Shown in pieces: positions 1-45,107 of a stretch of DNA of 64,000 nucleotides. A program made the translations under genes and the position numbers. The stretch lies in NCBI GenBank assembly GCA_032249395.1, contig JAVVFY010000003.1, positions 28,329 to 92,328 of the forward strand, written 5' to 3'. Position 1 is the first letter of the stretch. Each line of letters starts with the position of its first letter. This DNA comes from Candidatus Aenigmatarchaeota archaeon (lineage in GTDB: Archaea > Aenigmatarchaeota > Aenigmatarchaeia > CG10238-14 > SpSt-28). The notes beneath the pieces were generated by a model. The model was not told where the DNA came from. It saw nothing but the letters and a program-made list of their open reading frames with translations, and did not search any database.

Positions 1-3000
1 ATCGTAGATATCTGCTGTAAAGTTGAACTTATTAGACCAGCCAAAATAATCATCGAAACCAACTTTTTGCCAGGAATTTATAGAGTTGTTCCAAACATAG
101 ACGCTAAAGTTTTCTGCAGTAGCATTAACGTTCTCTAACCAGAATCTGTTTTGATATGTAGTTGAATTGAAGTTGTATAATGGCATTAAAGTAGAATTCA
201 GTCTTATGCTCCAATAACCTTCTTTTTTACCAGTAGAATTCCAAGTACAGTTATACCAACCATTGTATTCGTTCATTATCGGATTGCAAGTTTCTGCCTC
301 TCCATATGGAGAAATCAGTTCTATACTAACGCTTGCATTTGGTATTAAACCTTCAGACGAACAGTCGCTAGTAGTATTGAATCTAATTGTTATTGGTTGA
401 GTTACGTTGAAAATACTTCCGTTAATTGGTAATTCTAAGTTGTTCTTTAATTGACCTGTAATGTTGAAAGTCGGTGGAGCAAAAGGACCACCTGCTCTTT
501 GAGTATAGTTTTCAGCAATATAGCAGGAATCTATTATTCCTGCATCCCATTTTTGAATTCCCACTGAATAGCTACAATCTGGATCTAGAACATAGCTAAT
601 GTAGCCAGAGGAATTTGTCGTTACAGTAAATACAGTGTTAAATGTACTTCCATCTTTTGTAAAGTAGAATACTGCCAACTTTCCTTCTGGTAAGTATTCA
701 TCTCTATCTAAATCTTTAATCCTCATCACAAAGGTTCCTTGAGTATTTCCTATTTCTCTATCAATTCTTGTTGGTGCAGATACGTAGTAAACCTCTACGC
801 TATCTGGCCTTATTTCTATTGTATCAGAACTTTCGTTAGTATAGCCCCAATCGTCAGAAACGTTTATCTTATAGTTCCTCACACCAATCTTTGAGCAATC
901 AAATGTTTGTATAAATGAGAATAATTTTTCGCTAAAACATGTTGGTGCTTGACAAACAGTTGAGTTAACCAATTCAAAGCCATTACCAAAATCAATCCAC
1001 AGAGAGATGTTTAGTCTTTCATTAGAGTAAGCTCCTTGATCTACATCTCTAACTATTGCGGAGAAATTCCAAATTTCACCCCAACCAAAGTTATTATCTG
1101 TAATTAAACAATCTCCAGATCTACATTTAGTTGTTGGTGGTAACAAAGTAACTTCTGGGTTTGTTACAATAGCGAAAGAATTAACTATTTTGCTTTCTGG
1201 GGAATCAACATAATTCTCTTTACTAGCGTACATGCTCAAATTATACCATTGCATGCTCCAATAGCTCGATGGATATACTGTGCAAGAATAAGTACCATTT
1301 CCATAATCTACAACTTCATTTGGTGGACAATTTGATGATGGTGAGTTTTGAGATGGTTCTGCTATGAATGAAACGCTTGCATTGCTAACATAGCCACAAT
1401 CGTCTTTAACTATTCCTACGTATGTTATGCTATCTATTCCTCTTCTGAAAGTTTTTGATGTTGGTTGCAAGAGAGTAGCATTCAAAGGATAGCTAACTAA
1501 AGTTATGTAGAAGTCATCTCCATAAACATAAGTTGAGTTTATTGGCTTGTATGCTCTGTTAGCTGTTCCAAATTCTACTCTCCATCTCAAAGTTCCTAAG
1601 TTATAAGTACATCTTGGTAATGATGGGAATGTGTGACTTGTATAACCGTATGCTCCTATTGTCAAGTAGCTTCCATCTACAACAAAACTATTTGGATCGT
1701 ATGGATTTGTGGTTACATAAAATCTTATTGGGCCTGTAGTTCCTACTGGCAATAGAACATTTCTATCAGTGTCATACACTAAAATGCTAAATGTAATGTT
1801 ATCTTCACTTGGAGCTAGACTTCTGTTTAGTATAGTATTGTTTCCAAACACAATAGTTATGTTAACATCATCTGGTTGAACAGTAAATGTAAATAAGCTT
1901 GTATTAGCTGAATTTATACCATCTGTTGTGTTGAAGAATGCTTCAAATGTTGTTCCTGCACACGCTGAACTAAAAGCGTTTGGAGATGGGAAGTCAAATA
2001 TTATTAGACCTGGCTGAGTTAATCTGCTTGCTTTTAGATAATAGTTTGGCCATTTACTCGCTTCTGGACAAGCTGGATCAGCTATTGTTATATTTCTTAT
2101 CCACAAACTAACATTGTTGAAATCTGAATCTTCGTCAGTCAAAGTTACTCTAAACTGCCAGCTTTCTCCCCAACCTCCATCTTGAGAATAACTGTAAGCT
2201 GGACTACTTAAGCTTGGTTTTGTAACTATGTAGAAAGCGCAGCCGCTAGCTGCGCATAGATTTCCTATTGTTGTTGTGTTGGAATTATACCATGGAACAT
2301 CTTTTGAAATCATCGTTAAAGTATAGCTTCTTGGAAGCTTGCTTGCATTATTAACAAATAGACAATTGTAGTAGCCATCACCTTCATTGTTAACAGAATT
2401 GTATGGTTCGTCACAATAGAATGTATTTCCAGTTACAGTATGAGTAGCATAAAAGCTAACATTAGCGCTTGATAGCAAGCCTTCTTTAGCAGAACAATCT
2501 GTCGTTACATAACCTCTCCAAGTTATATTTTCTTCATCTCTAATGAACTTGTCTTTAGTAGTGTTTGGAGATGTAATGAAATTCAATAATTGACCAACAA
2601 TCCCAATTGTATAGTTTTCACTCGATGCAAAATGATAACATTCTCCACTAGGTATAATTGTTGATTTATAGAATGCTTTCCAGTTTTGCAAACCAACGTT
2701 AAAGCTACAGTTTGGATCAAAATTAAACGTTACGTTTCCTGGTAAGCTTGAATAAGTTCTATTGCTTCCAACAAACAAGAAATTGCTCCCATCAAAAGTT
2801 ACATTGAAACCAATTTCAATTTGTGCTGTTCTATCGCTACCTACAGGTCTGCTTCTATTAAAATCAGTTACATATACTCTTAATGGCAAATATCCAAAAG
2901 CTCTTGTTATGTTTGTGTTGTTTCCAGAAACTAAAGATATTGAAATGACATCTTTATCTATTATTGGTCCGTAATTTGTTGAAGTGTTCGTTTGACCTAT

Positions 3001-6000
3001 AACGTCAGTCAAATTAAACCTAAACCAATTATCGCTACCAACATCATTGAAAGTATCGTTACAAGTGTATGGTTGTATGTTCTCAAATCTACATGTTCCA
3101 CTTCCTCCACTTATAATTTGAGAACCAACATACCTCCAAACATTGCCATTGTCTGTTGAGACGAACAAACTACAATTGACATCATCTCCATCTGTATCTA
3201 AAACATCTATGCTAAAGTTGTATTTGTCACCCCAACCTCCAGCAGATGGAGTAACTTGTGGATTTGAATATCTTGGTGGTAAGTTGACTATTTCAAACCA
3301 ATTCGAATATGTTGTTTGATTTGAATAGAAGTAGTCTTTAGCTGACTGCAAAATTATGGAATATAATCCTGGCAATTTTCTTGTTGTGTTATACTCACAA
3401 TAGTAAGTTCCGTTGTTGAAATCAGTTATTGGTTGACAAGCTTCTAGAGAATTGACAGGATTTTGTATCAATATTGGATTTGTTATGCCTTGAGTTGAAT
3501 TTGGAACGCTTGGTGTTTCTTCACTTATATAACCAGAACAATCGCTTTTTACATCCATAACTATTGGAATCATTACTCCAGTACCATTAACCCAGCCCTG
3601 TGGAGGATAGTTTAAGTTACTGTAAAGCTGACCATAAACATAAACGCTGGCGTTACTTGTTCTTGAGTATCTATAGCAAGTATCATTTAACTCGATAAAC
3701 CAAATTTGTCTTCCTGTTGTATAATTACAATCTGGGTCGAAATAGTAGGTGAATAGACCATCTGAACCTGTATATATTTCTATAGGATCTCCAAAGTTAT
3801 TTCTGTCTTTTGTAATGTAAAGATACCCTTTAATTCCAAGATCTGTGGCATAAGTTCCTCCCTTTGACCAATCTAGTATGTAACCTTGCAATATTGCTGT
3901 TTCATATCCAGGTCTGTAAACACTAGAGCCATCTCCGCTTTGAATATAAACATCAGCCCATTCCTTATCTACAGTAAATGTTTGTTTTGAAGACTCGCTC
4001 TTCAATCTATTATCATAAACAAAAAGATTATCAGTAGCGTTGAATTTGAATGTATGAGTTCCTATATCTGAGCAACTAAATGATGTAGTAAATACTAGCG
4101 CATCAGAGCCTTCACAGGGCGGAATACACGTCATTGACCCAATATATTCCCAATCACCTGTTCTATTAATCCAGAGGCTAACGTTAACCAAACTTCCTAA
4201 TTCTCCTGTTCTGTCTTCATCTTCAACATCAACTTTAAACTGCCAGAGATCTCCCCATCCATTTGTAAAGTTTCCAGCAGTAACATAATAGCTATAAGTA
4301 GTCAATGTTGGCCTAGAAGCTAAATAAAATGCATTAGTTTGTTGAGTCGTTAAAGAGTCGTTGTAATATTGTTTACTAGCATTTACACTAACATTCCAAT
4401 ATCCATAAATTAACTCGTAGTTAGAGTTCAAAGTTGAGTTCGTTATATTACAAGCATATGTACCATTGTTAAAGTCTACTACACTACCAATAGACCTACA
4501 TTCTCTGATGGTATCTCCTCTTTGTATGTAAAAGTTCGTTGTAGCACCTCTAACTCCACCACATTCGTCAGTAACATTCGCCACTAATATCAAATAGTCT
4601 GCTGGTGTTGGGGACTTTATGTAAATCTTACCATCTTTTGGAGAAATATAATTAACGTTTAATGTATCTGTTACGATTGTTATAGTAAATTCTGAGCTGT
4701 TTGTTGGTTTGTAGAAGGGATTGCTATCTAATACTCCAGCTTTCCATTTTTGAGGTCCTATTGCAAAAGAACAATCTGGATTAAATTGAGTTAGGGATGT
4801 GTTTATATATCCTCCTGGTGAAATTGATGATGTTCCACTAATAGTAATATAATTGTAGAAATCTGTCGTTACAAAAATTGCTGCTCCGGGAGAACCAATA
4901 GCATATTCTCCTTTATCTACATCGTATACTCTGACAGTAAGAGTTTGTATATTGTTTCCTGGTCGATAAACTGATGTGCTGTTTCCGACAACATGCTCTA
5001 TTATCACATCGTCTTTTTTGTAGATTAAGGTTCCATTGTTTGTCTGATATACATTTTGTGGAAAGTCTTTAGTTTGATTTCCAAAAATGTCTTGATATTC
5101 GCTAACGTTGAACATAAATGCGTGTGGACCTACAGCAGATGGAGATCCTAAGACAGTAGGAGATGGTAGTCTCAACATAAAAGTAATAGTTTTATTTATT
5201 CCCCTATCGTATGCAGTCATATTAGATGGAAGTTGATACCATTCTCCATTATCAGTTCTATTTATCCAAAGCTTTACTTCAAGCAAATCATCGTCTTCGT
5301 CAGTAATGTTGACTCTAAATACCCAAAGTTCACCCCAGCCTCCATCTCCCACTCTCCCAAGAGAGTCATAAGAAATTGTATAGAAGTCTGTTGTTAGAAT
5401 TGGCTTTGTTTCTATCCAGAAACCTTTTTTCCAAATTTCAAAAATCTCTAAAGTAGAATTGCTATTGTAGTAACTTTTGCTTGCGTTAAATGTAACATTC
5501 CAACCTTTAGCTCTAAAGCCAGAAGTGTTTAAAGAGCAGGTGTAGTAACCATTTCCTAAATATTCTACAGGATTACAATAGTTAACTATAGAACCCTGAG
5601 AAACGGAGAAATTGGCATTTGCATAAATTCCACCTTCAATCTCACAATCTGAAGTTATTCTTGCTGTTAGATTAACGTTTTGACCATCTGGATAATCTCC
5701 TCTCAAATACTTTTCTCCTTTAGGTGAAATCACATCTAAAACCAAATCTCCATAGACTTCTACTGTATAGTTTTGAGTTGGAGTTGTATTTGTATAAGTT
5801 TCAAAGTAGCAAGCATCATTCTCTACTTTAGCAAACCATGCTTGTTTTCCTGTTGAGAATTGACAATCTGGATTGAAATCTAAACTTGCATATCCACTAG
5901 AATTTGTTTGAGTGTAGTAAGGTTTGAAATTGGTTTGATCATAAGTAACATAGAATGTTAAGTTTGTGTTTGCTAATGGCAATGAATTTCTTGTTAAATC

Positions 6001-9000
6001 TAAAGCTCTAATAACAAAACTGACAGTGTTTCCTATGTTGCTATCAGATCTATTAACTTTTGCTCCATCTCCACTAACAAGAGTTAGAGAAATTGAATTC
6101 TTTGTTATAGCTGGGCCAATTGAAATTTCGCTATCTGATGTGTTAACTCTGTTGAAAGTATCGTTTACCACAAAGTAGAAGCTTGCTATTCCTTGGTCTT
6201 CACAGGTGAAATCGTTAACTTCAATATAACAAACTCCTGGAGTACTTATGGTTTTTGAACCCTTGTGAGCCCAATTGTCATTTGTTTTTACATACAAACT
6301 ACAAGTTACAGTATCGTTTTCCGGATCTTCAACATAAGCTGAATAATTGAATAAACTTCCCCAACCTGCTGCATTTGGTGTAACATTCAAATTGCTGACA
6401 ATTGGAGGCCTATTCTCTAACCAGAACCAATTAGCAAATGTTGTTGTGTTAGTGCTATAATAAGTTTTTGAAGCTTGTATTGTTATGTTCCAATATCCTT
6501 CTGCTTTTGATGTCGAATCCCAAGTGCAATTGTAGTTTCCATTATCTTCGTTTATTGGAGAACAACTTGAGGAATAGCTTCCGCTACTCAATGTTAGCAC
6601 GTTTGAAACTTCACTTATATTTCCTGAATCTCTAACGCTTGAATTCAAATAGCAATCAGAATAAACATTCCAACTTATGTTTATCTTATCTCCAACATTG
6701 AACGTTGAACCGTAAGTTGGCAAATTCAAATTAATGTTCAATTGACCTTTTATTATAAAGCTTGAGTCGCTCGAATTTGCATCAAAATAACATTGATTAC
6801 TCGCTATACCAACTTTCCAAGATTGATAACCAACATTGTAGGAGCAATCTGGATTGAAATCATATTCTAGATAACCAGAAGCATTAGCATATACAAGATG
6901 GCCTTCATCATAAATTCCTGTATCTCTTGTGAACCAGAAGTATCCTTTAACATTTTCTTGACTCAAATCTAACCAAGCATTCTTGTCAACATCATAAACT
7001 CTAACAACAAACTTTCCATAATTATTGCCATATCTCAAAACTTCTGATGGTACTGATATTGAATAGAATGAAACTGTATCTTTTGTTAGCGTAACTGTTA
7101 TCGGAGATGTCTCATTTCTCAAGCCATATGAGTCGCTAACATTTAGCTTTAGCAAAATTGTTGAGTTTATCAAATATTCGCTACAATTGAATGAAGGATT
7201 AAACTCAAAGTAGCATGTTCCCGTACAATCGCTTGAACTCTTTGAATCAACATAAACCCAATTTACTCCATCGTATGATTTCCACAAGCTTATGTTTACT
7301 GGGTCGCTTGGGTCTGCATCTAAAACTAAAGCACTAACCAAAAAGTAACTTCCCCAACCACCAGAGTCTCTGTTTATTGAATATGAAGTTATAGCTGGCT
7401 TTCTTCTAACTTGGAAAGCATTTGATTTGTATGAATAAGTATCGTTGTAATACTGTTTGCTAACGTTCATGCTTATATCATACCAACCTATTAGACCAGA
7501 ACTTGGGAATGAACAAGAATAAGTACCATTACCATAATCATTTACTGGAGAACAAGTTGAATGAATTGGTTCTATTGTAAATATTGTTGATGTTCCACTT
7601 ACTCCAGAACTACAATCATCAGAAACATTCCCAACAATCAATATTGGATCTCCTTCTGCAATAACATTTCCATTCGGTTGTAATATAGATGAAGTTAAGC
7701 TTCCGTAGATTACAACAGTGTAGTTTTGCGAGGCATTGCCAAAGTAATAGCTATCTCCATCAAAAGCTGCTCTCCAATTCTTTACTCCAACGGAATATCT
7801 ACAGTCTGGGTCGAAGTTTAATGTAGCAAAGCCTGAAGATGTTGTTGTTCCGTATCTTATCCAACCTGAGTCTGAGCTAACGTTTATGTATGTTGTGTCA
7901 GAACCTTTATCTAATGGTAAATTCGTGAAAGCATCATACAATCTTGCTTCCAATATTGTTGTGTTTGTTCCAACTCTACTAACCCAAGAATTGTTTCCTT
8001 GTGAATATACCCAATAAGTTCTTCTCTTCGTTACATTAAATGTTTGAATACTTGTTTGAGCTACTCCACCATAATTATCGCTAGCGTTTATGAACCATTC
8101 ATAACTTCCAATATCACTTCCTGAAGTGTAAGATTTTTGTAGAGTTACCGTTACATTTGTACAATTGTTACAAATTGTAGAAGCTGCTAAACTAAATGCT
8201 CCATCTGGCAACTTTCTTATCCATAAGCTAACGTTAACAATATCGTCTTCATCAGTAACATTAACTTTGAATGTAAATGTTGAACCCCAAGGAGCCTCTG
8301 TTGGAGTTACTGATGGTGCTACTAAAACTGGTGGAACTTCATGGAAGAAAGCGTTTTGTTTAACTTTTGAAGCATTGTTGTACAAATCTCTAGAAGAATA
8401 CATGAAAACTGAATACCAACCAGGAGGATTGTTTGAAATATTCCAAGTGCAAGTGTAATATCCGCTAACATAAGATGCAAAACAGTAATCTTCAAATGCT
8501 CCATGCTTTACTTTGTAGAAAACATTAGCATCATTTATTGGATTATTGCATTCATCATTAACTAATCCGCTTATCGTCACGTTTTGATTTGATAAGTAAG
8601 CTTCTCCATTTGGCTGAGAAATCGTGTTGTTTAGCCATCCTTTAATGTTTACAGTTAATGTTAAAGTTGAGTTTGCATTTTTGTAACAAGCATCGTTTAC
8701 TATTCCTGCTTTCCAATATTGTGTTCCAACGTTATAAGAACAATCAGGAGTAAAGACAGCCGAAAGATAGCCATTATCTCCTGAAGCTTCCCATGCACTT
8801 CCATAATTTACTCCATCATAAGTAACCCATATCTTACCGCTAACATATCTATCTACAAATTGTTTATTGTCTCTATCGTAAACCTTTATTTTCAGAGTTA
8901 CACCCTCGCTTCTATTAACCCAAGAGTTATTTCCTAAAGAGTTTGAATCGTAAACGAAATCAACATCGTCTTTATCTAAGTTAAAGCTTATTGGTGCCAT

Positions 9001-12000
9001 ATCAGTCGTGTTTCTTGGATCTGTTGCGTTGAACTTAAAGTAATATGTTCCTATATCGCTACAAGTAAAACCAGAATAATAAAATGTTAACTCTCTTTTG
9101 CTTCCACAATTGTAGCACATTTGAGATGAAATGTAATTCCAATTTACCCCATCTTTAGATAGCCATAAACTAACGTTAACATCATCAGCATTGGCATCGC
9201 TTACATTGACTTTGAAAGTGTAGTTTTCTCCCCAACCCCAATCGTCCTCTGGAAAAACTGTTGCATCTTCTAAAACTGGAGGTTGCCAAACGTGAATTAT
9301 TCTAAATACAGAAACATTTGTGAAGCTTGCGTCGTTATAATAAATAACATTAGAAGCGTTTACTCTAACATTATACCATCCTTCTTTTGCTTCAGTAGCG
9401 TTGAAAGTACATGAATAAGTTCCATTGCCATAGTCTTGAACGTTATCACAATTATAAACATCACCAAAACCAACGCTTATTGGTTCTATTGTTACTGTTG
9501 CTCCACTTATGTTTCTCAACTTACATTCATCTTGAACAAAGACGCTTATGTTTATGTAGAGTTGATTTTCTCTGTAGTAAGTAATTCCATTAGGATAAAC
9601 AACAAATGGAACCAAATCTCCTATAATCGTTACATTGTATGCTTCGCTGGAAGCATCTTTGTAGCAAGCGTCAGCTTGAACATAAGCTACCCAATTTTGC
9701 CTTCCTGCATCATATCTGCAATCTGGGTTGAAATTGTATTCTACATATCCACTTGAATTTGTAGAGTTGCTTCCATCTGTTATAAATGCTGTTCCATTGA
9801 AAATGTTAAACCAAACTCTCGGATAGTATTGAACTCCTATTTGAGAGAATGCTGGAGAATTCTTATCTCTATCTAAAACATAAATCATGAACTTTGTCGA
9901 ATTATTTCCGTTTCTGTTAACATAACTTTCGTTTCCTAAAACATAGATTAGAGAAATGTCATCCTTTCTCAAAGTATGAGAAATGGCGCTTGTGTTTGAA
10001 TATGTCTGTGGAATATCTGGCTCACTCGCATTAAACATGAAATATCTAATAGCTGCTTGCTGATAATCTGAACAAGTGTAATCTCTAGTAAAGTTAACCA
10101 AAGTGTAACTTGGATTTTCTATAAATCTACAATCTGTTACTGACCATGGTCCATCTGAAGATGTAGACTCTAATAAGCAAACGTTTACGCTAGCATAATG
10201 ATTAACTATAACGCTGAAATTGTGAATTTCGCCCCAAGAACCATCGTTTGGATACTCAACTTTTGGATTGATTAACTCTACTGGTTTTATAAGGAAGAAA
10301 GCGTTTTGTTTAAATGATGAAGCATTCAAATAGTATTGTTTTGAAGATTCCATTGATACATTGTACCAACCACCAGATTTTCCTGTAGTATCAAACTCAC
10401 AAACGTAAGTATTTGAAGTGTTTGTTATATAGCCTGAAGATGGACAATAATATTCGTTTGAACCAGAAGTTAGTTTGAATCTAATGCTTGCATCGCTTAT
10501 TGGATTCCCACAATCATCATAAACTTCTCCAATCAAATAGATTTTTTCTCCAGCAGTATAGTTTCTATCTCCAGTTGGAGAGATTATACTGTTTGCTAAA
10601 CTTCCAACTATTATAACATAGAATTCTTGTGAACTATTGCTCTCATAACAAGCACTACTAACATTAACCTTCCATTTTCTTAATCCAACTGAATAAGAGC
10701 AGCTAGGATTAAAGTTTATGAAGTAATGAGTTTCGTTTGAATAAACAATTTCTTGCTCCCAATTAACATCATCTTTAGTTACGTAACCATAAACTTCGTC
10801 AGTTGAAATTTCAGTTGTGTAGTTTCCAAAGACTAAATTCTTTATTCTAACCGTCAAATTAACAGTATTTCCTATCACGCTATCGCTTCTGTTAACAACA
10901 CTATTATTGCCAGAAGAATAATCTATGGAAATTGGAGTTTTTGTTATGTTGAAAGCTATTACCTGAGTTTCGTTTTTGAAGGTTGTTGGAGAAGTTGCAT
11001 TGAATTTGGCATACCAGCTTCCTATATCGCTACAATAAAAGCTTTTCTGAGTAAAGAATTGATAGTTGTTACAATTTACGCAAACGCTTGAATTTTCTAA
11101 TTGCCAATTAGAATTTTCTCTTTTTAGCCATAAGTAAGTGTAAACAGGTTCTCCATCTTCACTTGTAACATAAACACTAAAGTTGAATGGATTTATTTGC
11201 CAGCTTCCTTTTGGATATGGAGAAACTTGAGGATTATCCAGCTTTATGTTTGACGCAACGAAAAATGCATTTTCTTTAAAGTAAGTTCCATTCCAGTATT
11301 TACCAGCTTCGCTTCCTTCAGCAAAAGCTATCATCGTAACGTTATACCAACCAAGAGGAGCATCTTGTGGAATTGTCCATGTTGTATAAGTTAGTGGAGC
11401 AACTATAGTATAAACTGTGGAGCCGTGAGAAATTATATATTCTACTCCAAAAGATGCACTATCTGTTTTAACTAAGCCACAATCATCTTTTATAATGCCA
11501 TCAAACTCAACAACTTGTCCTCTAGTATAGTTTCTAGAGCCATTTGGATAAAGCATGTAAGAATTGCTTAAGTCTCCTATCAACCAAAATGGTATTATTG
11601 GTGTCACATTATCTTTGTAAGTTGAAGCTCCAAAAACTCCTCCTTTCCAATAGTTTTGCCCCAAGTAATAATCTGAAACTTTACACCAACTATCAGAAGT
11701 ATTTTGCATTGTTCTAACTACATAACCTGTTGAGTTTGCTGAGAGAGATGGAGAAATATCAAAAGTTTCGTTGCTTCCGTATTTTGATATAAATATTCTT
11801 GCTTTTCCTTCATCTACTTGACCGAGCTGCAAATAGTAAGGATAGGTTTGATTGTCGATATCAAAAACAAACATAGTGAATTCAAAAGGCATGCTTCTGT
11901 TAACAGTTGCATTTAATATTGGCTGTATTCCAAAAACGCTTATATCGTCCTTTTCAATCGTATAAGCATATCCTAAAATTTCTGATGAACCATCTGCATT

Positions 12001-12300
12001 AGTTGCATTGAATTTGAAACTCCAAGCTCCAATAGCGCTTCCATCATATTTGAATGAAAAGTTTAGTTGAGTCCATTGCAGACAATTGTAACAAACTTGA
12101 GAACCAATCAACGAATATTCACTTGCTCCCATTCTATGCCAAGCATAAACAATAACATCTCTTCCAAATCTATCTCTCACATAAACTCCAAACTTATAAT
12201 TCTCTCCCCAACCTCCAACATTTCTAACTTGATCGTCTATGTAGAGAGTAGCATTGGTTAATAGTGGCGAGTATTTATAGATTTTTGATTTAACGAACAA
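1..12300 (-). repeat. Main tandem array inside the giant ORF: 12 complete divergent modules of about 310-360 aa plus a partial 13th at the window edge
   Basis: The G-W-G codons (plus-strand ccccaacc-type strings) recur at about 1085, 2172, 3235, 4255, 5335, 6365, 7355, 8287, 9235, 10235, 11213 and 12212, with spacing of 930-1090 nt. The FNPDC motif (plus-strand caatctgg) recurs with the same period. Conservation is at the protein-motif level; the DNA copies are not near-identical. Confidence 0.85.
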
Positions 12301-15300
12301 GTTTTGAGTTTCATTGAAGAGTTTTCCAGTAGACCAAACATAAGCAATTTTCTCTATGCTAACATTTGAGTAAGGATTGGTGCTTGAATCTGCATAAGTA
12401 TCTATGAAAATATTTCTCAAAGAATTAACAAAGTTTGTTGAATCGTTGCTGTCAATTGAATAATTGCTCCAAACTTTTGATAAAGCTAATGAATGAGAAT
12501 AATTTTGCCAGAATATTCTTTTGTTCAATAAATCATCTGCAATTGAAACCTTTGCCTCAGCGATTGTTAGATTTTCATCTCCAAAACTATAGTTGATTAA
12601 AAATGCAATTTCTTTCATTTTTTCATATCTTGCGTTAATTGGTTTTGTAAACACGAATGGATAAGTTAAGCTACAAGAGTTTCCATAACAAGAAATTGAA
12701 GTATCGTTAACAAAATAGCTTTCGCTTCTCGTATCCAAAATTCCTTCAGCAACCAAAACTTTCTTTCCTTCTAATGAACAATTCAAAGTGAAGTTTAAGT
12801 AAGAAGAAGAATATACACTCAAAGATGGTAAGCTCCAAGATATCTTTCTTGTTGATGGATTGAAAGTTCCGCCATTATAAACATTTAAAACGTCGCACTC
12901 TTCTGGAATGCTTAAATAAACGCTCCATCCAGAAGCTGTTGTATCGCCAATATTAGTTACTTTAAGGCTGTAATTGTAAGCTCTGTTTAGTTGAGAAGAT
13001 CTTACTTCTGGCCATGGATATTCATCTTGCTGTATTGCCTCTATATCGAATGATAGATGAGACTCTTGATTGTAAGAAGCTGTTGAAACTGTAAATGGAT
13101 TTTCTTCTTCAAAGCTTTTTCCATCCCAACTAACATTAAACTTGAAGCTTCCAGTTTTCGAATAAATATTTGGTGCTTTTACTTGATAAGTTAGAACTGC
13201 ATACTCATTTACATCAATGTCTCCAAGATTCCAAATTACCAAATTGTTTATCAAATCTACTGAAGAAGAAAGCAACTGAACGCTGCTCCCATAAACGTTT
13301 GTTTTAATGCTTGGATTTGCTGGAGTCCAACCACTTTCCAAAGTCTCAATTATTGTTGCACCAGAAGCTTTAGCACATCCTTTGTTGTGAACTACTAATC
13401 TACTTTCGAAAACTTTATCTGGTGAAACAAATGGAGGAGTTTCTCTTATGACTTCAAGAATTGCTATTGAATTGCTTTCTTGAATTTGGAAAGTTGCTGT
13501 TTTTGTTTTTTGAGTTATGTGATTGTAATTAACAATTGCTTGAATGTTTGCCAACTCGCTTGTTGAATTGCTCGAAGTTAAAGTGAACTGAGCATAATAC
13601 TTTCCGGGAGTTATTGCTTTAACAAGTTGATAAGATGGGGTGAATGTCCAGCCAGTTGGAACAGAAAGAGTTACATTGTAATCTATTTCTTCGTTGAATG
13701 GATGATATATTTCTACAATGAATGGTTCGCTAGTGGAATTGCACATCCAATTGCTTCCTTTAGCATTAACAGTAACGTCTTTAATGGTTAATAATTCAAC
13801 TCTAGTAGAAACGTTTGAATTGTAAACAAATGTTGCAATTATATTGTAATTTCCTTCACTCCAAGCTTGAGTATCAATGTTTGAGAAGTTTGCTATGTAA
13901 CTAGATTTTTGATTCAAAAGTAAAGGTGAGCTAGATGAATAAACAACATTACCATAAGCATCTGTTATGTTTAAGTAAAGCGTTCCAGAAATTTGTTGGT
14001 TGAATGAGTTTGAAAGAATTACAGAAATGTTCAAGTATCTATCTGTTTTTTCCAATCCTTTTACAGAAATGCCATTAACGTTTGTATCTACATCTTGAAT
14101 CAAAACAGTTTCATTGTAGTAAGCAGAAAGCTTTAGGCCAGAAATGTTTACAGGATTGTCACCAATGTTTGTAATTCTTATTTTGCAATAGCCAGTTTCA
14201 CTTGGCTGAATTTGTTTTTCTAATATTGGAATGAAGAGAGAAGATGGAGAAGTGAAGTAGAGAGAATGAGAAACATCTAACCAATAAGTTCCGTTGTAAA
14301 CCTCTATTCTAATTTTTCCATCTTGCAAGCTTGAGGAATAAGTGGAAATTGAAAGATTAGCTATTCTGTAACTTCCAGCTTCACAAACAAAATTGAACTC
14401 TTTAGCTTCATTTGAATTGAGCAAATATGGCAATTCTTCTTGAGAAAAAGTTTCACTCATGAACTTATAAGTAAAAACATTTATCGTTAAGCTATCGTTT
14501 TCGGCGTTGCTTGAATTAACAAATATTATTATTTGGTTTGACGAATAGGTTGTTGGGTAAATGTTGAACCAAATTGTTTTTAATTCTCCAACGCTAACAT
14601 TTCCAACATATTTTGTTGTTGAATCTGCTTGCCACCCAGTTGGCAAAGTCAAATTAACATAAACATCATTCGCTACAGTACCGCTTGGTCCCAAAGTTCC
14701 AACTGTAACTCCAAGAGTGAAGTTTTTGTATTGGAAGGCTTCTTTTGGTTGTTTGATTTCTCCTATTTTTATTTGAGGTTTACAACCAGAAGTATCTATT
14801 GAAATGTTGAAGTAGCTTGTTGTGTATGGCTTGTAATATGGCTCATCTGAAGCTATTTCAGCATACCAATATTGATCTCCGCTAGAAAAGCTACAATCTG
14901 GAGTAAAGTAGAATTCTGCGTATCCAGAAGAGTTTGTTATGTTTGATCCTATAATTTTATCGTAAAGGCCATTATACTTTATTCTAAATGTAACAGTTGC
15001 TGCCGGATTCAAATTGTAGGTTTGTGCATCTAAATCGTAAACTCTAACAACAAACTTAGCTGATTGAGCAGGAGAATATTTAGCAAAGCTATTGTTACCT
15101 TCTACATAGCTTATATTAACATCATCTTTTTCTACAGTTACATACAAAACTTGAGTAGTTTCTGCCCCATCCATCTTAAACTGATAATACCAATTTCCTA
15201 TGTCGTTTGCAGTAAAGTTTCTATACCAATACTTTGTTGAATTTATGCAATTGGAGCATTCATTCGGAGTTTGATTTATGCAAGTTGGGGCTTCACATTT

Positions 15301-18300
15301 GAATATTGGCGGCCATGTTTTTCCCATATACAAGCTAACGTTTAGAACGTTTTCTGAATCACCTGAAGAAGCTTTTACCGAAAAGTTCCAATTTGGATAA
15401 CCCCAACCTTCAGATAGTGGATAAGCTTGTGGATTTTCCAATTTTTTGATTGGCAACAAGTAGAACAAGCCAGGATATAAAGCATTAACTGTTGAGTTGG
15501 GATAATGATAATCTTTACTTGCATACATTGTTGTGTTGTACCAGCCCATTGGAGTTAAAATATCAGTTTGCCAATCGCAAGTGTAAGCGTTAGCACCTAC
15601 TTGATATACTGGCAAACATTCAAAGCTTTGAGTTGATTTATTAGCAAAGAATCTCACGTTTGTTGTTAATGCATCTCCACAATCATCAGTAGTTGCTCCT
15701 AAAAAGCTTACTTTTTGTTCTTGTGTGAAGTTTGTCGTACCATCTGGCTTTTGGAAGTTTAAGATTATATCTCCTGTAACCAAGACTGAAAGATTGACAA
15801 AATTTTCTGTTGAATTATCAAAGTAACAAGCATGACCACTAACAACTGCCTTCCATTTCTGATATCCAACTTGATATTTTGGCGAGCATTTTGCTTGGAA
15901 GTAGTAATTAGCATAAGCTGATTCGTTTGTTGAATTAGTTGTTCCAGAATCGTAAATGTTTCCATCTAATGTTACGTAAAATGTTACTGGCAAGTTTGTT
16001 ATTAGAGTGTTATTCTTATCTCTAACCCTCAAAGCAAGCAAAGTTGTTGTTTTTCCTCTTCTCGTTTCTGTACCATTGCCAATAATATCTTCAAAGAATA
16101 TTGTGTCTTTTGTTATTGTGAATGTTGTTGAAGTTGAGTTTGTTGTTCCTGCATTGTTTGTAGCGTTAAACTTAACGAAAACTGGAGAACCTATATCGCT
16201 ACAATCGGCGTCAAACTCAAAAGTAAAGTTTATCCAATCTCCAGTATTTCCAGCACCTGGAGCAGGATAAACATCACAACCTACTAACCTCCAAGGCTCT
16301 GAACCAGTTTTGCTAAAGTATGAGCAAACTTGAACATCGTTTTCTGAATTTGTAACTCTAACGCTTACATTAAAAGTAAAGTTGAATCCCCAGCTTCCAG
16401 TGGAAGTTCCTGTTTCTTTTGAAATTACCAGTGGATTTTCCATTTCAATGGTTGCTGGTGGTAAGCCAACTAAAACATCATTGCAAGACATTACTTCAGT
16501 TGAATTTTCAGTTGAATTTGCTCTTATGCAAATTGTGTAAGTTCCTGCAGTATTTGCTGTAATGTTCCATTTTGCTTCTCTAATTCCGTTCAATTCTATA
16601 GTTCCAAGGTAATTGACGTCACTTAAATCACCAGTAGCATTTCTAATTTCTAAAACTCCTGGGCCAGTGTAATTTATTACAGCAATAACATTGCTTGCGT
16701 TTCCTGGGCCAAAGTTTGTTATTGTTGAGCTTGCATTGAAAGGCTGATTTAAAAATGGATTGTTAGGAGAGAAGCTTGGTTGACTAACTGTTAAACTTGC
16801 TCCACATGCAATGAAAATATCATATGGTTCGTCTAAGAATGTGAATGTTCCGTTTGTTGGAATTGCTTGAAATCTGAAAGTACCATTGGTCTGGAAAGTT
16901 ACATTAATTGTGTAATTGTAAATTTTAGTTCCGTCAAGTCTTCCGAAGGGTGAACCAAAATTTATTCCTCCGTCCCAATTGATTTTTCTTGCATCATCTA
17001 TTGTTGCTGTTGTTGGGAGGGATGACCAAGGATATTGAAATATTAAATCTTGCGGGTGCGTTACTGTAATGTTATATTTATTTTCTGTAATATTTGCATT
17101 TATCAATGGTAAGTTGCCTTTATTCCATGTTTGTAAAGATACATTGAAAATACCGCAACCTACAGTTGATGGAAAACCTGTTTTATAGCTTGTTGAAGTA
17201 TCATTGTAAAGTCTTTGTGTTTTGATCCATGGACCTTCTACAACTAAAGGTATAACATCATCAGTAAACAACCACATTGTTGGAGATTGAGCAGTGTAAG
17301 ATCTTCCTATAGTTCTAATAAATATATGTTTTCCTCCTGGAGTAATATGAGGTATATTGCTAACATCTAAATTGAAAGTAAGAGATACAAAACCATTATT
17401 TGATGGAACTGAAAACAATAAACCTCCTTTAAACCAAACGGTCCATCTTACAACCCATCCTTCATCGGGAGAACCATATGGATAGCCTGGTGCTGGTGGG
17501 ACACCAAGATCAGCTCCTGCTGAGCTTCTCCAAACAAAATTTTTCGGAGTTAAACCCGGTGGGAAATGTATTTCAACATCGTAGATATCGCTAAAAGTAC
17601 CAGCTCCACCCCCACTTCCAAAAAGTCTAATTTCTACGCCAACATTTGTAGAATTTGCAGGAATTTTAGTGATGTTTATTCCATATACAGTAGAACCTCC
17701 GGCTCTACCACTTCTTGCAGGGAAGAAAGCTAATTCCGGATCTGTTGTTATAGAGAAAGTTTGCCCAGTTACAGGATCATTCCATACAACTTGAGCTATA
17801 AATTCCTCTGGAAATGTATCTCCACTACCAGGATATCTAACTAAAAACCATTGGCATTGTGAAGTTGAAATATTGTAATTTAGCCATTTGACTTCTCCTT
17901 TTACAGGAGTTACGCTAGCTGCTGGTACTTGAAAATCTGATGCTGATAAAGTACGAGTAAAATCTGTTAGGTTATAAGTTATATTGTAGTCACCATAGTT
18001 ACATACCGTAATATTGCGCCAAACCGTACCGCTACCAGCTGATTGAGTTACTGCAGTTGCATAAGAAGGTGTTACTGTTGTTAAAGTTAGTGGAGAGGGT
18101 TTAATTCCTAAAGACTCTACTTGGAATATTTTATCATGAACGATTTCTGGTTTGTTTGGAGATTTTATTCTAATTCTTGCTATGTATTTTTTTGAAGCAT
18201 CCACATCATCAGGAATTTTTACATGCCAAACAGTATCATTAAACGACCAATTACCAATTTGTGATGGTGGCGTACTCTTTACAAATACGCTTCTGTCAGC

Positions 18301-25360: not shown

Positions 25361-26248
25361 TTACTTTGTAAGACGTTTTTTAAACTCTCTTTCAGCCTCT
25401 TTTATACATTTTATTACTTCTTTTTTAATTTCCTTCCTTAATTTTTCTTTCAACTTAACAATCCTTGACAAATTTTTTCTTTTCTGGACTTTCAATATTA
25501 ACTTAATCATCTTAATTTTCTCTTCATGTTTCGTGTATTTAAGCAACTTTCTGGCAATAGAAATCACTTCATCTTGTCTCTCTAAATATACGATCCAGCG
25601 CTTGCATGGTTCCTTATGAAGTCTAAAAATTGGATGATATCCATCTTTTTTAAGTCTCTCGTATATGCCTCTTAATATGTGCCTGTCCTTTGTGATTATA
25701 GAGAGTCTTATATTGATACTATTCTCGCCTCTTTTCCTTATAAACCAACAGCCATCAGCATCTATATATCCAGCAAGGAATGCATAAAAAAATTCGCCTT
25801 GTGGAAGTTTTACTGGTTTTTCTAATATAAATTCAAACGAAGAATCTAAGTAAGCTTTAAGGTTCCAATCAAACTTTGGAGTAATCTTTCTTTTTCTGGG
25901 TGTCTTACTGCAGTGACCATACTTACTGAAGAGTTTACAAAAAAGATGAACCATAGAAGGATGAGTAGTTGACAAAGAACATATTATCTTATTGTGCGAC
26001 TTCACTACATAAAGGTCCCCCGAGCGAAAACCGATTAAGTAATATTTCTCTATTTCATTTCCTGAGAAAGGAGATGTTGGATATTCACTATTTGCTTCTG
26101 ACAAAGTTCTACGAGAGAGGCTGTATTCAATCATTCTCCGTCTTATAGTTTCTTTACCAACTCCAATTATTTTAGCTATTTGAGATAAACTTAGCTTTTC
26201 TTTATAATACATTCTCTTTATTTCTTTTATAGGAAATTCTTTTTCCAT
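25361..26248 (-). mobile_element. Free-standing HTH plus LAGLIDADG homing-endonuclease-like gene
   Basis: The N-terminal HTH is LSLSQIAKIIGVGKETIRRRMIEY. The first dodecapeptide motif is degenerate (YYLIGFRSGDLYV) and the second is canonical (YAFLAGYIDADGCWFI). The C-terminal tail is basic. Confidence 0.7.
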
Positions 26249-39085: not shown

Positions 39086-39331
39086 GTGAAGAAAGAAATA
39101 GATGTTTCTAAGCATGAATTAGTACCAAAACACGAAATAGTTAGCGAAAAGGAAAAAGAAGAACTAATAAAGAAGTATGGAAGTATAAAGAATTTTCCTA
39201 GAATTTTGTCGACAGATCCTCAAGTAAAATTATTAAATGCAAAACCAGGAGATGTTATAAAAATAAGAAGGTATAATGATGTAACGGGAGAATCAATATA
39301 CTATAGAGTAGTTGTAGAGGTGAAAGAATAA
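39086..39331 (+). CDS. rpoH: RNA polymerase subunit H (Rpo5)
   Basis: The sequence HELVPKHEIVSEKEKEELIKKYGSIKNFPRILSTDPQVKLLNAKPGDVIKIRR fits RpoH. It has a GTG start and is the first gene of the conserved cluster. Confidence 0.9.
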   Translation: MKKEIDVSKHELVPKHEIVSEKEKEELIKKYGSIKNFPRILSTDPQVKLLNAKPGDVIKIRRYNDVTGESIYYRVVVEVKE

Positions 39332-40821
39332 TGGAAAATGTTTTCACAATTCTAATGAAGTCCTATCTTAGAGAAAAAGGACTAGTAAATTTTCAAATAG
39401 AGTCCTTTAATGAGTTCGTCGAAAAAAGGCTACCAAAATTAATAAAGAGTATTGGAAAAATAAAGCCAGAACTTCCTGAAATTGGGGAGTTAGAAATAAA
39501 GCTTGGTAAATTTGAGCTTGGGGAGCCAAGAGTTAAAGAAGCTGATGGCTCTATAAGAAAGATATATCCAATGGAAGCGAGAATAAGGAATTTGACATAT
39601 TCAGCACCAATGTACGTTGAAATGACCCAAGTATTAAATGGAATAGAAAGTAAACCAACAATGGTTGAAATAGGCGATCTACCAATAATGGTGAAATCTA
39701 AATTTTGCCCTTTATCGAGAATGAGTAGAAAAGAGCTTATAGAAATAGGAGAAGATCCTGATGATCCAGGAGGATATTTTATCATAAATGGTACGGAAAG
39801 AATTCTAATGCTTGTAGAAGAAATAGCAACTGACAGAATTATAGTAGAAAAAACTAAAGATTCTTCTGTTCCACAAATAGCAAGAATACATTCTGAAAGG
39901 GAAGGATTTGTACAAAAACACTTAATAGAAAGAAAAAGAACTGGAGAAATTTATATAACATTTGCTAACATTCGTAGGATTCCTATAGTAATAATACTAA
40001 AGGCTTTAGGATTAGAAAAGGACAAAGAAATCTTAGAAGCCATATCTTTAGATGAAAGAATTCAAGAGTCATTTTTAATTAACATTTTAGAATTTCCGAT
40101 AAAAAATGGAGAAGAGGCTATAGATGAATTGGGTAAATACCTTAGGATTCCTCAAAAATCTATGAGAAAAAAACAAGCAATAAGAATGATAGATAAGTAT
40201 TTGCTACCTCATATTGGACAGGAGCCGGAAAATAGACTAGCCAAAGCTATGTTTATAGCCAAAGCTATAGAAAAAATTTTAAAACTTCACTTGGGCGAAA
40301 TAGAAGAAGATGATGTAGATCACTATGCAAATAAGAGAATTAAAATGGCTGGAGACTTGTTGGAATTGCTCTTAAGGTCTATACTTTTGGGAAAATGGGG
40401 ATTAATAGTTAGAATGAACTACAATTATCAAAAACTTGTAAAAAGAGGAAAATTGCCTCCCTTGCAAGCTGTAGTAGAAAACGCAATATTAACTAACCAA
40501 ATAGTTTCAGCTATGGCCGTTGGAAGTTGGATAGGTGGAAGAACTGGGGTAACTCAGAGGCTTGAAAGAAGTAGTTGGAACAAAACTATAACTCATATGA
40601 GAAATATTGTCTCACCACTTTCTTCTACCCAAGAACATTTCGAAGCAAGAGAACTTCACCCTACTCATTTTGGTAAACTATGCGTAACTCAAACGCCAGA
40701 AGGAGCAAATATTGGTTTGAGAAAGTATCTTGCTATTAGTGCGACGATAACTCCTAAGATAGACAAAAAAGATATAACTCCAATACTAGAGTTACTAGAT
40801 TCTGTAAAGGTGAAAAAATGA
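39331..40821 (+). CDS. rpoB2: RNA polymerase subunit B'' (N-terminal part of split Rpo2)
   Basis: The motifs QIESFNEFV, GYFIINGTERIL and HFGKLCVTQTPEGANIGL are present. An ATGA overlap links it to the next ORF. Confidence 0.9.
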   Translation: MENVFTILMKSYLREKGLVNFQIESFNEFVEKRLPKLIKSIGKIKPELPEIGELEIKLGKFELGEPRVKEADGSIRKIYPMEARIRNLTYSAPMYVEMTQVLNGIESKPTMVEIGDLPIMVKSKFCPLSRMSRKELIEIGEDPDDPGGYFIINGTERILMLVEEIATDRIIVEKTKDSSVPQIARIHSEREGFVQKHLIERKRTGEIYITFANIRRIPIVIILKALGLEKDKEILEAISLDERIQESFLINILEFPIKNGEEAIDELGKYLRIPQKSMRKKQAIRMIDKYLLPHIGQEPENRLAKAMFIAKAIEKILKLHLGEIEEDDVDHYANKRIKMAGDLLELLLRSILLGKWGLIVRMNYNYQKLVKRGKLPPLQAVVENAILTNQIVSAMAVGSWIGGRTGVTQRLERSSWNKTITHMRNIVSPLSSTQEHFEARELHPTHFGKLCVTQTPEGANIGLRKYLAISATITPKIDKKDITPILELLDSVKVKK

Positions 40822-43800: not shown

Positions 43801-45107
43801 GACAGCCAAGCCTGCATAGAATGAGCATGATGGCTCATAGAGTAAGAGTAATGCCATACCTAACTTTTAGATTAAATGTAGCTGTCTGTCCGCCATACAA
43901 TGCCGACTTTGATGGAGATGAGATGAACTTACATGTTCCACAAACAGAAGAAGCCAGAAGTGAAATAGATATCCTTGCTTCGGTGGAAAAAAACATAAGA
44001 AGCCCGAGATACTCTGCTCCCATAATAGGACCAATAAGGGATGGGATAACTGGTCTATACTTGTTAACTAAAGACGGTAACAAGCTTAGCAGAAGAGATG
44101 CAATTAGATTGATAAGAAGCGTAGATACTGATGTAGAAATTCCGGAAAAGGATGAATTCACCGGTAAGGAAGTCTTTAGTATTCTACTACCTAAAGATTT
44201 CTCTATCGAATACAAAGGAAAAACAGGAATTGTAAAAATAGAAAATGGTAAACTTATAAAAGGTGAATTAGAAAAAAACGGAATAAGCGCGGACGGAGGA
44301 AAAATAATAGACAAAATAGAAAAATATTATGGAAGAGTGTTCGCTAGCGAATTCATTTATAAAATTCAGCTTTTAGGGATTAACTATCTGGACATGAAAG
44401 GATTTTCTCTTGGGATTACGGATTTGAGTATAGAAAAAAGAGTAAAAGAGGAGATACAGAAGATTATAGAACAAACAGAAAGCGATATTAATAAAATGAT
44501 TGAAAAATTCAACAAAGGAGAGCTAATTCCTATGATAGGGAGAACTACCGAGGAAACTTTAGAAAATATGATAAAAGAAAGAATAGCTATGTGTTTGAAT
44601 GAAAGCATGAGTGTATTAGAAAGAGGAATTAAAGAATCTCCAGCTTTAGATATGGTAAAATGCGGTGCTAGAGGAAGTTTAGTAAATCTCTTACAAATAG
44701 TTGGGTTAATTGGTCAGGAAATGATAATGGGCGAAAGAATAGAAAAAGGATATTATAAGAGGACTTTTCCTCATTTTAAGATGAATGATATAAGTCCGGC
44801 ATCCAAAGGTTTTGTTGCGCATGCTTTTAAAGATGGTTTAAACGTATTTGAATTCTACTTCGATAATATGAACTCCAGAGAAAGTCTTATGGATAAAAGT
44901 TTAAAAACAAGGCACTCTGGTTATATGGAGAGAAGATTAGTCGGCGCTCTTCAAGATTTAAAAATCGCATACGACGGAACAATAAGAGACGCCGCAAATA
45001 GAATAATTCAATTCGTTCCATTCGAGGATGGTCTAGACCCATCGAAAATTACTAGAGAAGGAATAAATGTTAGAGAAATAGCAAGGAGGATCTTCAATGC
45101 TTCCTAA
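40818..45107 (+). CDS. rpoB1/rpoA1: In-frame fusion of RNA polymerase subunit B' (Rpo2 C-terminal part, about residues 1-601) and subunit A' (Rpo1 N-terminal part, about residues 602-1429)
   Basis: B' motifs are [34 protein letters not shown] and the Zn ribbon CKKCG...CPVCK, followed by [23 protein letters not shown]. The frame continues without a stop into A' motifs: [37 protein letters not shown], the catalytic [12 protein letters not shown] and [13 protein letters not shown]. Confidence 0.85.

Follow-up and report, generated by a model that had tools for sequence, protein, structure and literature searches.

The DNA analysed here is a 64,000-nucleotide stretch of the genome of a Candidatus Aenigmatarchaeota archaeon (GenBank assembly GCA_032249395.1, contig JAVVFY010000003.1, positions 28,329 to 92,328 of the forward strand; hereafter the window), at the start of which lies most of a giant gene encoding a long tandem array of three-domain modules. 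On the minus strand, window 1–21207 forms a single stop-free open frame of 7069 codons that runs off the window start. The open frame and the gene call place the 5′ 62% of the gene at 1–21204 (−), with the ATG at 21204–21202 and residues 2–7069 inside the window. From the same ATG, a full product of 11,434 amino acids (aa), encoded by a gene of ~34 kb, was called on two ENA contigs of ~103 kb each (ERZ27249314:k141_10402 and ERZ27247211:k141_22287; the window corresponds to positions 27,529–91,528 of the latter). The repeat region is 97% identical to an 11.7-kb contig of the metagenome-assembled genome ‘Candidatus Aenigmatarchaeota archaeon Bin S16’, which lies wholly within the giant gene. 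In a JGI contig (L002, 97% identical), the frame stays open for another 10 kb past the window edge and reaches at least 10,402 aa; the added part holds five full modules, a partial one and a non-repeat, beta-rich ectodomain of at least 1,457 aa. Residue 10,402 is the limit to which the protein was read for this species (loci L002 and L003).

An earlier note on this DNA had proposed at least 12 divergent tripartite modules (sub-domains A, B and C) with a period of 930–1090 nt, and the array is real. GWG anchors recur 15 times, and slicing the protein at these anchors gave units of 310–363 aa, equal to 930–1089 nt. A profile hidden Markov model (HMM) built from 13 full units of this protein (alignment A1, 27–36% identity to the first unit) re-found the modules at 296–379 bits each (E 1e-90 to 1e-115), these being self-scores on the same modules. 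The HMM envelopes delimit 12 full A-B-C modules at 97–12237, all on the minus strand: M3 (aa 2991–3331, 11215–12237), M4 (aa 3325–3656, 10240–11235), M5 (aa 3647–3988, 9244–10269), M6 (aa 3982–4303, 8299–9264), M7 (aa 4298–4611, 7375–8316), M8 (aa 4609–4946, 6370–7383), M9 (aa 4939–5277, 5377–6393), M10 (aa 5280–5644, 4276–5370), M11 (aa 5646–5990, 3238–4272), M12 (aa 5981–6344, 2176–3267), M13 (aa 6335–6692, 1132–2205) and M14 (aa 6700–7037, 97–1110). The 13-module alignment bears out the consensus motifs given for A, B and C, and W13, N81, R120, C177, G182, W186, Y196, P220, C241, Y272 and F308 are invariant in it. The quoted example of sub-domain A, GWGENYTFKVNV...FKFNATD, was located at aa 3991–4063 (window ~9019–9237), and the two quoted acidic strings, VLDTDGDDVNCSLF and NITDEDDDLLEVKLW, were found in the translated frame. 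Off-diagonal BLASTP of the array against the 97% orthologue gave 27–30% identity over 2,400–4,100 residues with E = 0, so the likeness of the modules is far above chance, and 685 independent database proteins also match the module profile. Tandem Repeats Finder returned short repeats only, but the longest period that the program covers is 500 bases, which is below the module length.

The modules indeed occupy the region 1–12300 to which they had been assigned, although they are not confined to it. Further upstream in the gene lie M1 (A-B-C, aa 1599–1930, 15418–16413 (−), envelope score 333 bits, 70% identical to module 1 of the homologue P0155) and M2, which consists of A and B only (aa 1932–2138, 14794–15414 (−), HMM columns 10–212, 95 bits). 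At the other end, GWG slicing and the L002 orthologue place the first 22 residues of M15 at 1–66 (−), where the module is cut by the window edge; in L002, M15 is followed by four further full modules, one partial module and the non-repeat ectodomain. The entire array, window and L002 together, comprises 18 full and two partial A-B-C modules with one 852-aa interruption.

Ahead of the array, the chain begins with a putative export signal (20980–21204, −), for which the hydropathy scan showed a K-rich start and hydrophobic segments at aa 16–45 and 57–74, the only hydrophobic stretches in the 7069 aa. The following distal non-repeat ectodomain (aa 77–1598; 16414–20979, −) is all-beta and contains an MG2/Filamin/YtkA-like domain at aa 546–636 (Pfam MG2, 43 bits against a cut-off of 32.8); its aa 430–1600 are conserved in the family members P0155, P0135, P0071 and P0006. 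The interruption of the array is a non-repeat cassette of 852 aa (aa 2139–2990; 12238–14793, −), which is conserved across the family as a unit of its own, with full-length phmmer matches in P0045, P0012 (twice), P0008, P0155 and P0156, and for which Pfam gave nothing beyond a weak NPCBM_assoc match. Directly upstream of the giant gene, a 197-aa gene (21197–21790, −) overlaps the ATG with its stop by 8 nt. Its product carries a signal peptide, an S/T/N-rich linker full of N-glycosylation sequons (NxS/T) and one NPCBM_assoc/CARDB-like beta-sandwich (Pfam NPCBM_assoc, E 8e-8), and the gene pair was found on 14 contigs. This protein is a probable secreted partner, co-translated with the giant gene, and may act as an accessory or tip subunit.

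An exhaustive HMM search with the module profile against 1.84 billion cluster representatives returned 685 proteins at E ≤ 1e-3 and 326 at E ≤ 1e-30, with lengths up to 6,938 aa and up to 17 modules; a word-indexed protein search with the same profile gave five short fragments only, badly understating the family. The named members are all ‘hypothetical’ or called after an incidental domain. Their taxonomic spread, which the earlier note had wished to see surveyed, covers overwhelmingly DPANN bins (Aenigmatarchaeota, Micrarchaeia/Anstonellales, Ca. Haiyanarchaeum and Jingweiarchaeum, Nanoarchaeota). Family fragments on short contigs under bacterial bins (P0002, P0165, P0017 and P0035; Fervidobacterium, Thermotogae, Chloroflexi and Dojkabacteria) are most likely mis-binned DPANN contigs. 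In P0019, which is complete at both ends, a Peptidase_S8 (subtilisin) domain and an RCC1-like propeller stand ahead of the modules, and a spacer role of the array fits because the N-terminal head varies in this way between family members. On one 1.30-Mb contig of a Micrarchaeia genome (L018; GCA_041661025.1, JBAZVF010000001.1, 33–15713), a 5,226-aa C-terminal part starts at position 33, and the same contig carries a 6,938-aa N-terminal part marked partial (P0006); the two may be one gene of ~12,000 aa that was split when a circular genome was linearised.

The copies are strongly diverged at the DNA level, as had been stated from the letters: mean pairwise nucleotide identity between paralogous modules is 44.7%, with third-position identity of 38% against 32% expected from composition, and mean protein identity is 28.5% (range 21–39%). 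Recent amplification or gene conversion is excluded by this low DNA identity together with the near-random third positions. An old, selectively maintained array was likewise borne out, given that synonymous sites are near saturation between paralogues, that the ratio of nonsynonymous to synonymous substitution rates (dN/dS) against the 97% orthologue is 0.13 (127 nonsynonymous and 240 synonymous differences in 3,822 codons; 0.10–0.23 per module) and that the register is kept across lineages. Modules 1–8 best-match modules 1–8 of the Ca. Haiyanarchaeum homologue P0155 in register at 39–70% identity, their best paralogues being 30–37% identical, and collinear module runs were also seen with P0007 and P0164. 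The array and the order of its modules were therefore in place before these genes diverged. Frameshifts within the giant gene in two related metagenome contigs, L007 (~11590–11700; 72% identity) and L005 (83% identity), after which reading resumes in another frame, could be taken as signs of an assembly artefact or a decaying pseudogene. This explanation is effectively refuted: the same stop-free gene was recovered in ENA, JGI, Logan and NCBI assemblies, the dN/dS of 0.13 indicates a maintained product, and ~45% DNA identity between modules is too low for repeat-driven mis-assembly.

The proposed tripartite unit was reproduced by structural modelling. An AlphaFold2 model of M6, computed with 13 paralogues as alignment, shows three beta-sandwich domains (predicted local distance difference test (pLDDT) 93.0, predicted template-modelling score (pTM) 0.76); the model is all-beta, with A at residues ~1–100, B at ~101–205 and C at ~206–315 (window 8971–9264, 8656–8970 and 8299–8655, respectively). 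Sub-domain A modelled alone is also all-beta, with pLDDT 90.7. DSSP assignment of the confident models agrees with the immunoglobulin (Ig)-like fold, which is defined by a two-sheet sandwich of seven to nine strands, and each module is accordingly modelled as three Ig-like beta-sandwiches. Arguments from strand counts as to which loops point towards which adjacent domain were rejected, being inconsistent for sub-domain B. Comparison of family-wide profiles in hhalign related A to B with 91% probability (E 9e-7) and B to C with 78%, A against C being not significant, which suggests at the level of sequence profiles that the three sub-domains are distant homologues of one another.

The novelty of the sub-domains, which the earlier note had made dependent on the lack of strong matches to characterised families, stands: none of A, B and C reached a curated threshold in Pfam or NCBIfam. 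Scores were 22 and 20 bits for Big_1 (cut-off 34.9) and 21.2 bits for Invasin_D3 (cut-off 33), on few B and C sub-domains only; Filamin and Big_3_3 were also below cut-off, on few B or C sub-domains. Membership of the PKD families is not indicated, as K319L-like_PKD matched 2 of 14 A sub-domains, with 18 bits where the cut-off is 27. Nothing consistent was found in NCBIfam, nor on sub-domain A in Pfam. The PDB sequence search gave only a marginal match of sub-domain C to an Ig domain of CEACAM1 (E 2e-4), which probably stems from the G-x-Y-x-C motif. Foldseek with the whole module returned macroglobulin-domain arrays (complement C5, A2M) and the adhesin extender repeats 4p99, 6xi3 and 5irb at 8–14% identity and template-modelling scores (TM-scores) of 0.25–0.40. 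The macroglobulin arrays of C3/C5 and alpha-2-macroglobulin are the best match of the three-domain model (E 1.6e-10), and Pfam MG2 occurs in the N-terminal region; on the other hand, the TM-scores are 0.25–0.34, identity is 8–12%, and the giant protein shows no thioester, CUB or bait region. Membership of the alpha-2-macroglobulin/complement family was rejected, the similarity being at fold level only, with no A2M, TED or CUB match in Pfam, and the match reflects consecutive beta-sandwiches rather than family membership.

For sub-domain A alone, the nearest Foldseek neighbours were the Ig-like domains of glycoside hydrolase family 2 (GH2) enzymes (TM-score 0.66–0.70), RhoGDI and CTLA-4, with a best E-value of 5e-3. 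This neighbourhood of accessory glycosidase domains, the presence of NPCBM_assoc-type domains both in the C-terminal region and in the partner encoded upstream, and the individual conservation of each module position could all be accommodated if the modules were lectin-like or carbohydrate-binding-module (CBM)-like units that stick the cell along their whole length to glycans of a host surface layer (S-layer) or to biofilm polysaccharide. We consider such glycan binding improbable: GH2 Ig-like domains are structural and not sugar-binding, the E-values are weak (5e-3), no CBM or lectin family reached threshold in Pfam or NCBIfam, and a catalytic domain is absent.

The acidic DxDxD(G)D cluster of sub-domain A had been likened to the Ca2+-binding loops of cadherin- or thrombospondin-like adhesion domains. 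The cluster itself is conserved family-wide: over 405 unique near-full modules obtained from the exhaustive profile search, D25 is present in 81%, D27 in 54% and D29 in 59%, or 85%, 74% and 78% when D, E and N are counted together. A relationship to cadherin or thrombospondin was found neither in Pfam nor in Foldseek. No cadherin model matched sub-domain A at E up to 10, in any of its members, or the whole protein at E up to 0.1, and neither cadherin nor thrombospondin appeared among the top 50 Foldseek matches of sub-domain A, whose neighbours are those named above. Of the motifs that define cadherin repeats (DxD, DxNDN and LDRE at inter-domain linkers), only a DxDxD loop is seen. Thrombospondin type 3 repeats consist of contiguous DxDxDGxxDxxD motifs wrapped around Ca2+ and have no beta-sandwich core, whereas here a single acidic loop per 330 aa is placed by the model inside a confident beta-sandwich. 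Modules acting as Ca2+-dependent adhesion domains of these types, in which the loop would bind calcium to rigidify the chain or to adhere, would agree with the conservation of the loop in modules from many lineages, with the frequent G or N at position 28 and with the Ca2+-rigidified Ig-like extender repeats 4p99 and 5irb among the whole-module matches. Given the missing family relationship and the variation of the loop in M1, M3 and M5 of this protein, we regard this as rather unlikely, if the least improbable of the alternatives considered here; Ca2+ binding by the loop is possible as judged from its residues and would be compatible, as an added feature, with the stalk model set out below.

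Cysteines are frequent at ten profile columns of the same 405 modules, and their number per module is even in 92%. Five column pairs are strongly coupled. Positions 69 and 198, the FxCSD cysteine of A and the ACY cysteine of B, gave phi 0.97 (both present in 239 modules, only one in 5, neither in 161), and 180 and 244, the PDC of B and the DDC of C, gave phi 0.93 (381, 3 and 21, respectively). Within C, positions 266 and 279 gave phi 0.95 (322, 7 and 76). Within A, the CxxC pair 52–55 gave phi 0.79 (143, 41 and 221) and the pair 33–59 phi 0.87 (59, 14 and 332), these two pairs being mutually exclusive and never found together in one module. As a control, these columns were paired across adjacent modules of one protein (242 pairs), and phi was only 0.07–0.27; shared ancestry therefore does not explain the coupling, and the partners lie within the same module. 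In the giant protein itself, the modules lacking C69 (M2, M3, M7, M10 and M13) also lack C198. The suggestion that the invariant cysteines form intradomain disulfides is thus upheld as far as partner-like behaviour is concerned, but not in its intradomain part for the two best-conserved pairs, which are predicted to act as staples between A and B and between B and C; the pairs 266–279 and either 52–55 or 33–59 are the predicted intradomain ones. Nor is the cysteine scaffold of sub-domain A fixed, given its two mutually exclusive patterns.

Surface glycoproteins of archaea are N-glycosylated, which gives the sequon content its meaning. The 7,069 residues contain 296 NxS/T sequons (4.2 per 100 aa), a 2.6-fold excess over the 115 expected from composition and a density 10–20 times that of five cytoplasmic proteins of the window (0–0.4 per 100 aa). 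There are about 15 sequons per module, largely at fixed positions: 15 alignment columns hold a sequon in at least 30% of the family modules, and the FNATD site does so in 69%. Homologues have ordinary signal peptides at the matching N-terminal place. The sequon excess and the restriction of hydrophobic segments to the N-terminus therefore indicate an ectodomain that is probably exported and heavily N-glycosylated. Archaeal S-layer proteins are N-glycosylated and Ig-like, and DPANN S-layer candidates have been so described (bioRxiv 10.1101/2023.10.27.564410), so that an S-layer or sheath protein forming an envelope lattice has to be considered. It is very unlikely, because known and proposed S-layer proteins are ~1,000 aa long, and a chain of 11,434 aa whose homologues end in a cytoplasmic ATPase tail misfits a lattice subunit.

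All family members with an intact C-terminus end in a ~500-aa cassette consisting of a final CARDB-like domain, one transmembrane helix with a basic stretch after it, then a P-loop ATPase and lastly a coiled coil. The tail ATPase scores 41.6 bits with DUF87/HerA and 27.2 bits with HerA_C and just misses T4SS-DNA_transf (19.6 against 20.1 bits); its closest solved relatives by PDB matches are HerA proteins. Over its full length, the product of L002 (L002p) can be aligned with P0164, P0028 and P0159 (34–40% identity), and these run 1,016–1,031 aa further to the tail. The orthologue L019 (48.6% identical) is collinear to the last known residue and then continues for 1016 aa with a transmembrane helix, the Walker A motif GGSGSGKS, a coiled coil and a stop. 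The implied total is 11,418–11,433 aa, compared with the called 11,434 aa. Because of the collinear homologues and the matching total length, the giant gene of the window very probably ends in the same transmembrane–ATPase–coiled-coil tail, beyond the residues read for this species. The last 600 known residues, used as a protein query, retrieved distant fragments only, and the locus of the 72% orthologue L007 ends before the tail.

Two features of homologous loci adjoin this tail. About 600 aa before the stop, the L019 product contains a short Cys-rich knot, CGDGRCESGSGETSTNCPLDCP, then a Gly/Pro-rich linker, GGGGGPGGGAGGPGGGAGG...PPPTAPVTPITPTVPQPVP; both lie between the ectodomain and the last membrane-proximal domains and may form a flexible hinge near the membrane. 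Directly after the giant gene, four homologous loci encode a coiled-coil protein of 490–650 aa with 28–41% identity (L016, 12971–14929; L017, 12584–14263; L009, 25583–27064; L019, 10001–11707). Its profile matched 116 proteins, mostly from Aenigmatarchaeota and without a Pfam family; one homologue locus, P0189, belongs to the 48.6% orthologue, and none is tied to the species of the window. This protein may be a cytoplasmic partner of the ATPase tail.

Combined with the modelling, the co-occurrence statistics and the family comparison, the array is best read, with a probability of roughly 0.7, as the stalk of a single giant type-I membrane protein of a DPANN archaeon that serves host or surface contact and is possibly coupled to transport. 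From the N- to the C-terminus, the proposed layout comprises the export signal, a distal beta head of ~1,500 aa, the modules with their 852-aa cassette, ~2,000 aa of further beta-sandwiches and a tail predicted from the collinear homologues, with a single transmembrane helix, a P-loop ATPase of the FtsK/HerA/VirD4 type in the cytoplasm and a coiled coil at the end. The A–B and B–C disulfides would lock each module into one rigid unit, with further disulfides inside the domains. The chain would be exported, N-glycosylated and oxidised outside the cell, and projected as a stiff, protease- and heat-resistant glycoprotein fibre of possibly hundreds of nanometres, keeping the variable N-terminal head at a distance from the small cell, where it could reach a host cell or surface. 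The ATPase tail may couple the fibre to an energy-dependent membrane process; the suggestions made for the analogous SPEARE proteins of nanohaloarchaea are secretion, uptake and DNA handling.

The tail also invites a different reading, in which the protein would be a conduit and not a tether: six chains would assemble through a hexameric HerA/VirD4-like ATPase, with their ectodomains forming a long tube or bundle that moves DNA, proteins or metabolites between symbiont and host. ATPases of the FtsK/HerA/VirD4 type work as hexameric translocases, the tail scores with DUF87, HerA_C and T4SS-DNA_transf and has HerA proteins as its PDB matches, and in the four homologous loci the next gene after the giant one encodes a conserved coiled-coil protein. 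The same ‘straw’ idea has been put forward for the nanohaloarchaeal giants (PMC10266531). The conduit nevertheless seems improbable, as each chain has one transmembrane helix, no pore-forming domain was found, Ig-like bead arrays are normally rods and not tubes, and the second VirB4 ATPase that lies downstream in nanohaloarchaea is absent from the homologous loci examined. A still bolder and slightly less likely version is a transfer device made from one polypeptide, in which six copies, held together by the cytoplasmic HerA/VirD4-like ring, would build from their A-B-C modules a disulfide-stapled, glycan-coated fibre or tube of several hundred nanometres for ATP-driven transfer of DNA or other macromolecules to or from the host. 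If this were true, the individually conserved module positions would constitute a molecular ruler of fixed length for the gap between cells.

Several points weigh against the stalk of a contact protein. No ligand or host can be named from the 10.4 kaa read. For the final 1,033 residues, the prediction draws on homologues of 38–49% identity and the match in length, and for the A–B and B–C staples on co-occurrence statistics. Instead of a textbook signal peptide, the N-terminus shows two hydrophobic segments, and surface location and glycosylation in this organism are deduced from its sequence. Finally, each module position is individually conserved, and the array could have a role beyond spacing.

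The closest known systems are the giant proteins of nanohaloarchaea, in which a signal peptide, tens of tandem Ig-like domains, a transmembrane helix, a VirB4-TraG-like ATPase and a coiled coil follow one another (La Cono et al. 2023, PMC10266531). Hamm et al. (2019, PMC6642349) reported that the SPEARE protein is synthesised and that assemblies of Aenigmarchaeota and Micrarchaeota hold similar intracellular domains. That laminin-G, serine-protease and toxin-like parts define the class is disputed by La Cono et al. (PMC10266531). The present protein shares with the SPEARE proteins of Nanohaloarchaeota a DPANN organism, a length of thousands of residues (5,998–9,409 aa there, 11,434 aa here, both above the 3,000 aa that mark very long open reading frames), an N-terminal export signal, a mostly extracytoplasmic chain of tandem Ig-like domains and, very probably, the near-C-terminal transmembrane helix, FtsK/HerA/VirB4-TraG-type ATPase and coiled coil that are seen in its collinear homologues. 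This likeness is one of layout and of a shared Pfam superfamily, together with the statement in PMC6642349. It differs in its three-domain super-repeat with predicted inter-domain disulfides, compared with single Ig/FN (fibronectin) repeats of ~100 aa; in its high cysteine content, compared with an acidic-halophilic composition; and in the gene downstream in homologous loci, which encodes a coiled-coil protein instead of a second VirB4 ATPase. Pfam matched no laminin-G, serine-protease, toxin-like or WD40/PQQ propeller domain in the 10.4 kaa read, whereas the homologue P0019 has Peptidase_S8.

Two further systems offer parallels. Bacterial giant adhesins (MpIBP region II with 4p99/5irb, 6xi3, Bap and the cross-linked adhesin of Mobiluncus, PMC10619420), which are among the Foldseek matches, likewise use beta-sandwich arrays as a rigid spacer for a distal binding region, stiffened by covalent or metal cross-links. 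Their repeats, often almost identical in DNA, consist of one domain each and are linked by Ca2+, isopeptide or ester bonds, they are anchored by a type I secretion system or sortase and not by a transmembrane helix with ATPase, and their identity to the modules is ~10–14%. The super-repeats of titin are also a fixed series of different Ig-like domains whose positions are conserved more between orthologues than between neighbours; titin is eukaryotic and intracellular, has neither disulfides nor glycans and shows no homology, and the comparison is one of analogy only.

The architectural class, that of SPEARE-type giants, is already published, and the function of the present protein is one that we infer. 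The literature searched held no specific description of the A-B-C module or of a HerA-tailed giant in Aenigmatarchaeota, and the module family, the inter-domain disulfide pattern, the conservation of register and the spread over several non-halophilic DPANN lineages appear to be undescribed there. Much of archaeal diversity belongs to DPANN archaea, most of which live attached to other cells, and few of the molecules that make this contact are known. The design of a giant protein with an ATPase extends to Aenigmatarchaeota, Micrarchaeota and Parvarchaeales-related lineages with a different ectodomain block, which is represented by 685 cluster representatives and lacks a Pfam model. With its 11,434 aa, the protein exceeds the one of 9,409 aa described as the largest in cultivated archaea (PMC10266531). 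The predicted A–B and B–C staples and the register-conserved super-repeat suggest a route to a stiff, stable and long fibre, in habitats that apparently are often hot. A new domain family could be built from the module alignment, which would improve the annotation of hundreds of ‘hypothetical’ giant fragments, some of which are binned to bacteria.

Elsewhere the window contains archaeal core genes, among them a split rpoB, rpoA, aEF-2 with an intein, aEF-1α, PolB, FEN1 and several aminoacyl-tRNA synthetases, as well as four tRNAs. An open reading frame of 1,429 aa at 40818–45107 (+) joins two parts of RNA polymerase in one chain, the C-terminal half of subunit B (Rpb2 domains 4–7) and subunit A′ (Rpb1 domains 1–5), with ~5 residues between them; rpoB is also split, with B″ at 39331–40821. 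The fusion is not an assembly error, because an identical product was called on six contigs from independent assemblies. The aEF-2 gene (47923–51603, +) carries its intein, with a LAGLIDADG homing-endonuclease domain, inside the GTPase domain (residues ~44–525). A free-standing LAGLIDADG/helix-turn-helix gene at 25361–26248 (−) encodes 363 aa in the loci L010, L012 and L013 and is split into 74 and 295 aa in the window, L011 and L014, and may be a decaying homing endonuclease. Near window position ~38000, GC and AT skew flip sign sharply, from negative before to strongly positive after; the flip coincides with a change from mostly minus-strand to plus-strand genes (the rpo-EF operon) and may reflect coding-strand bias only.

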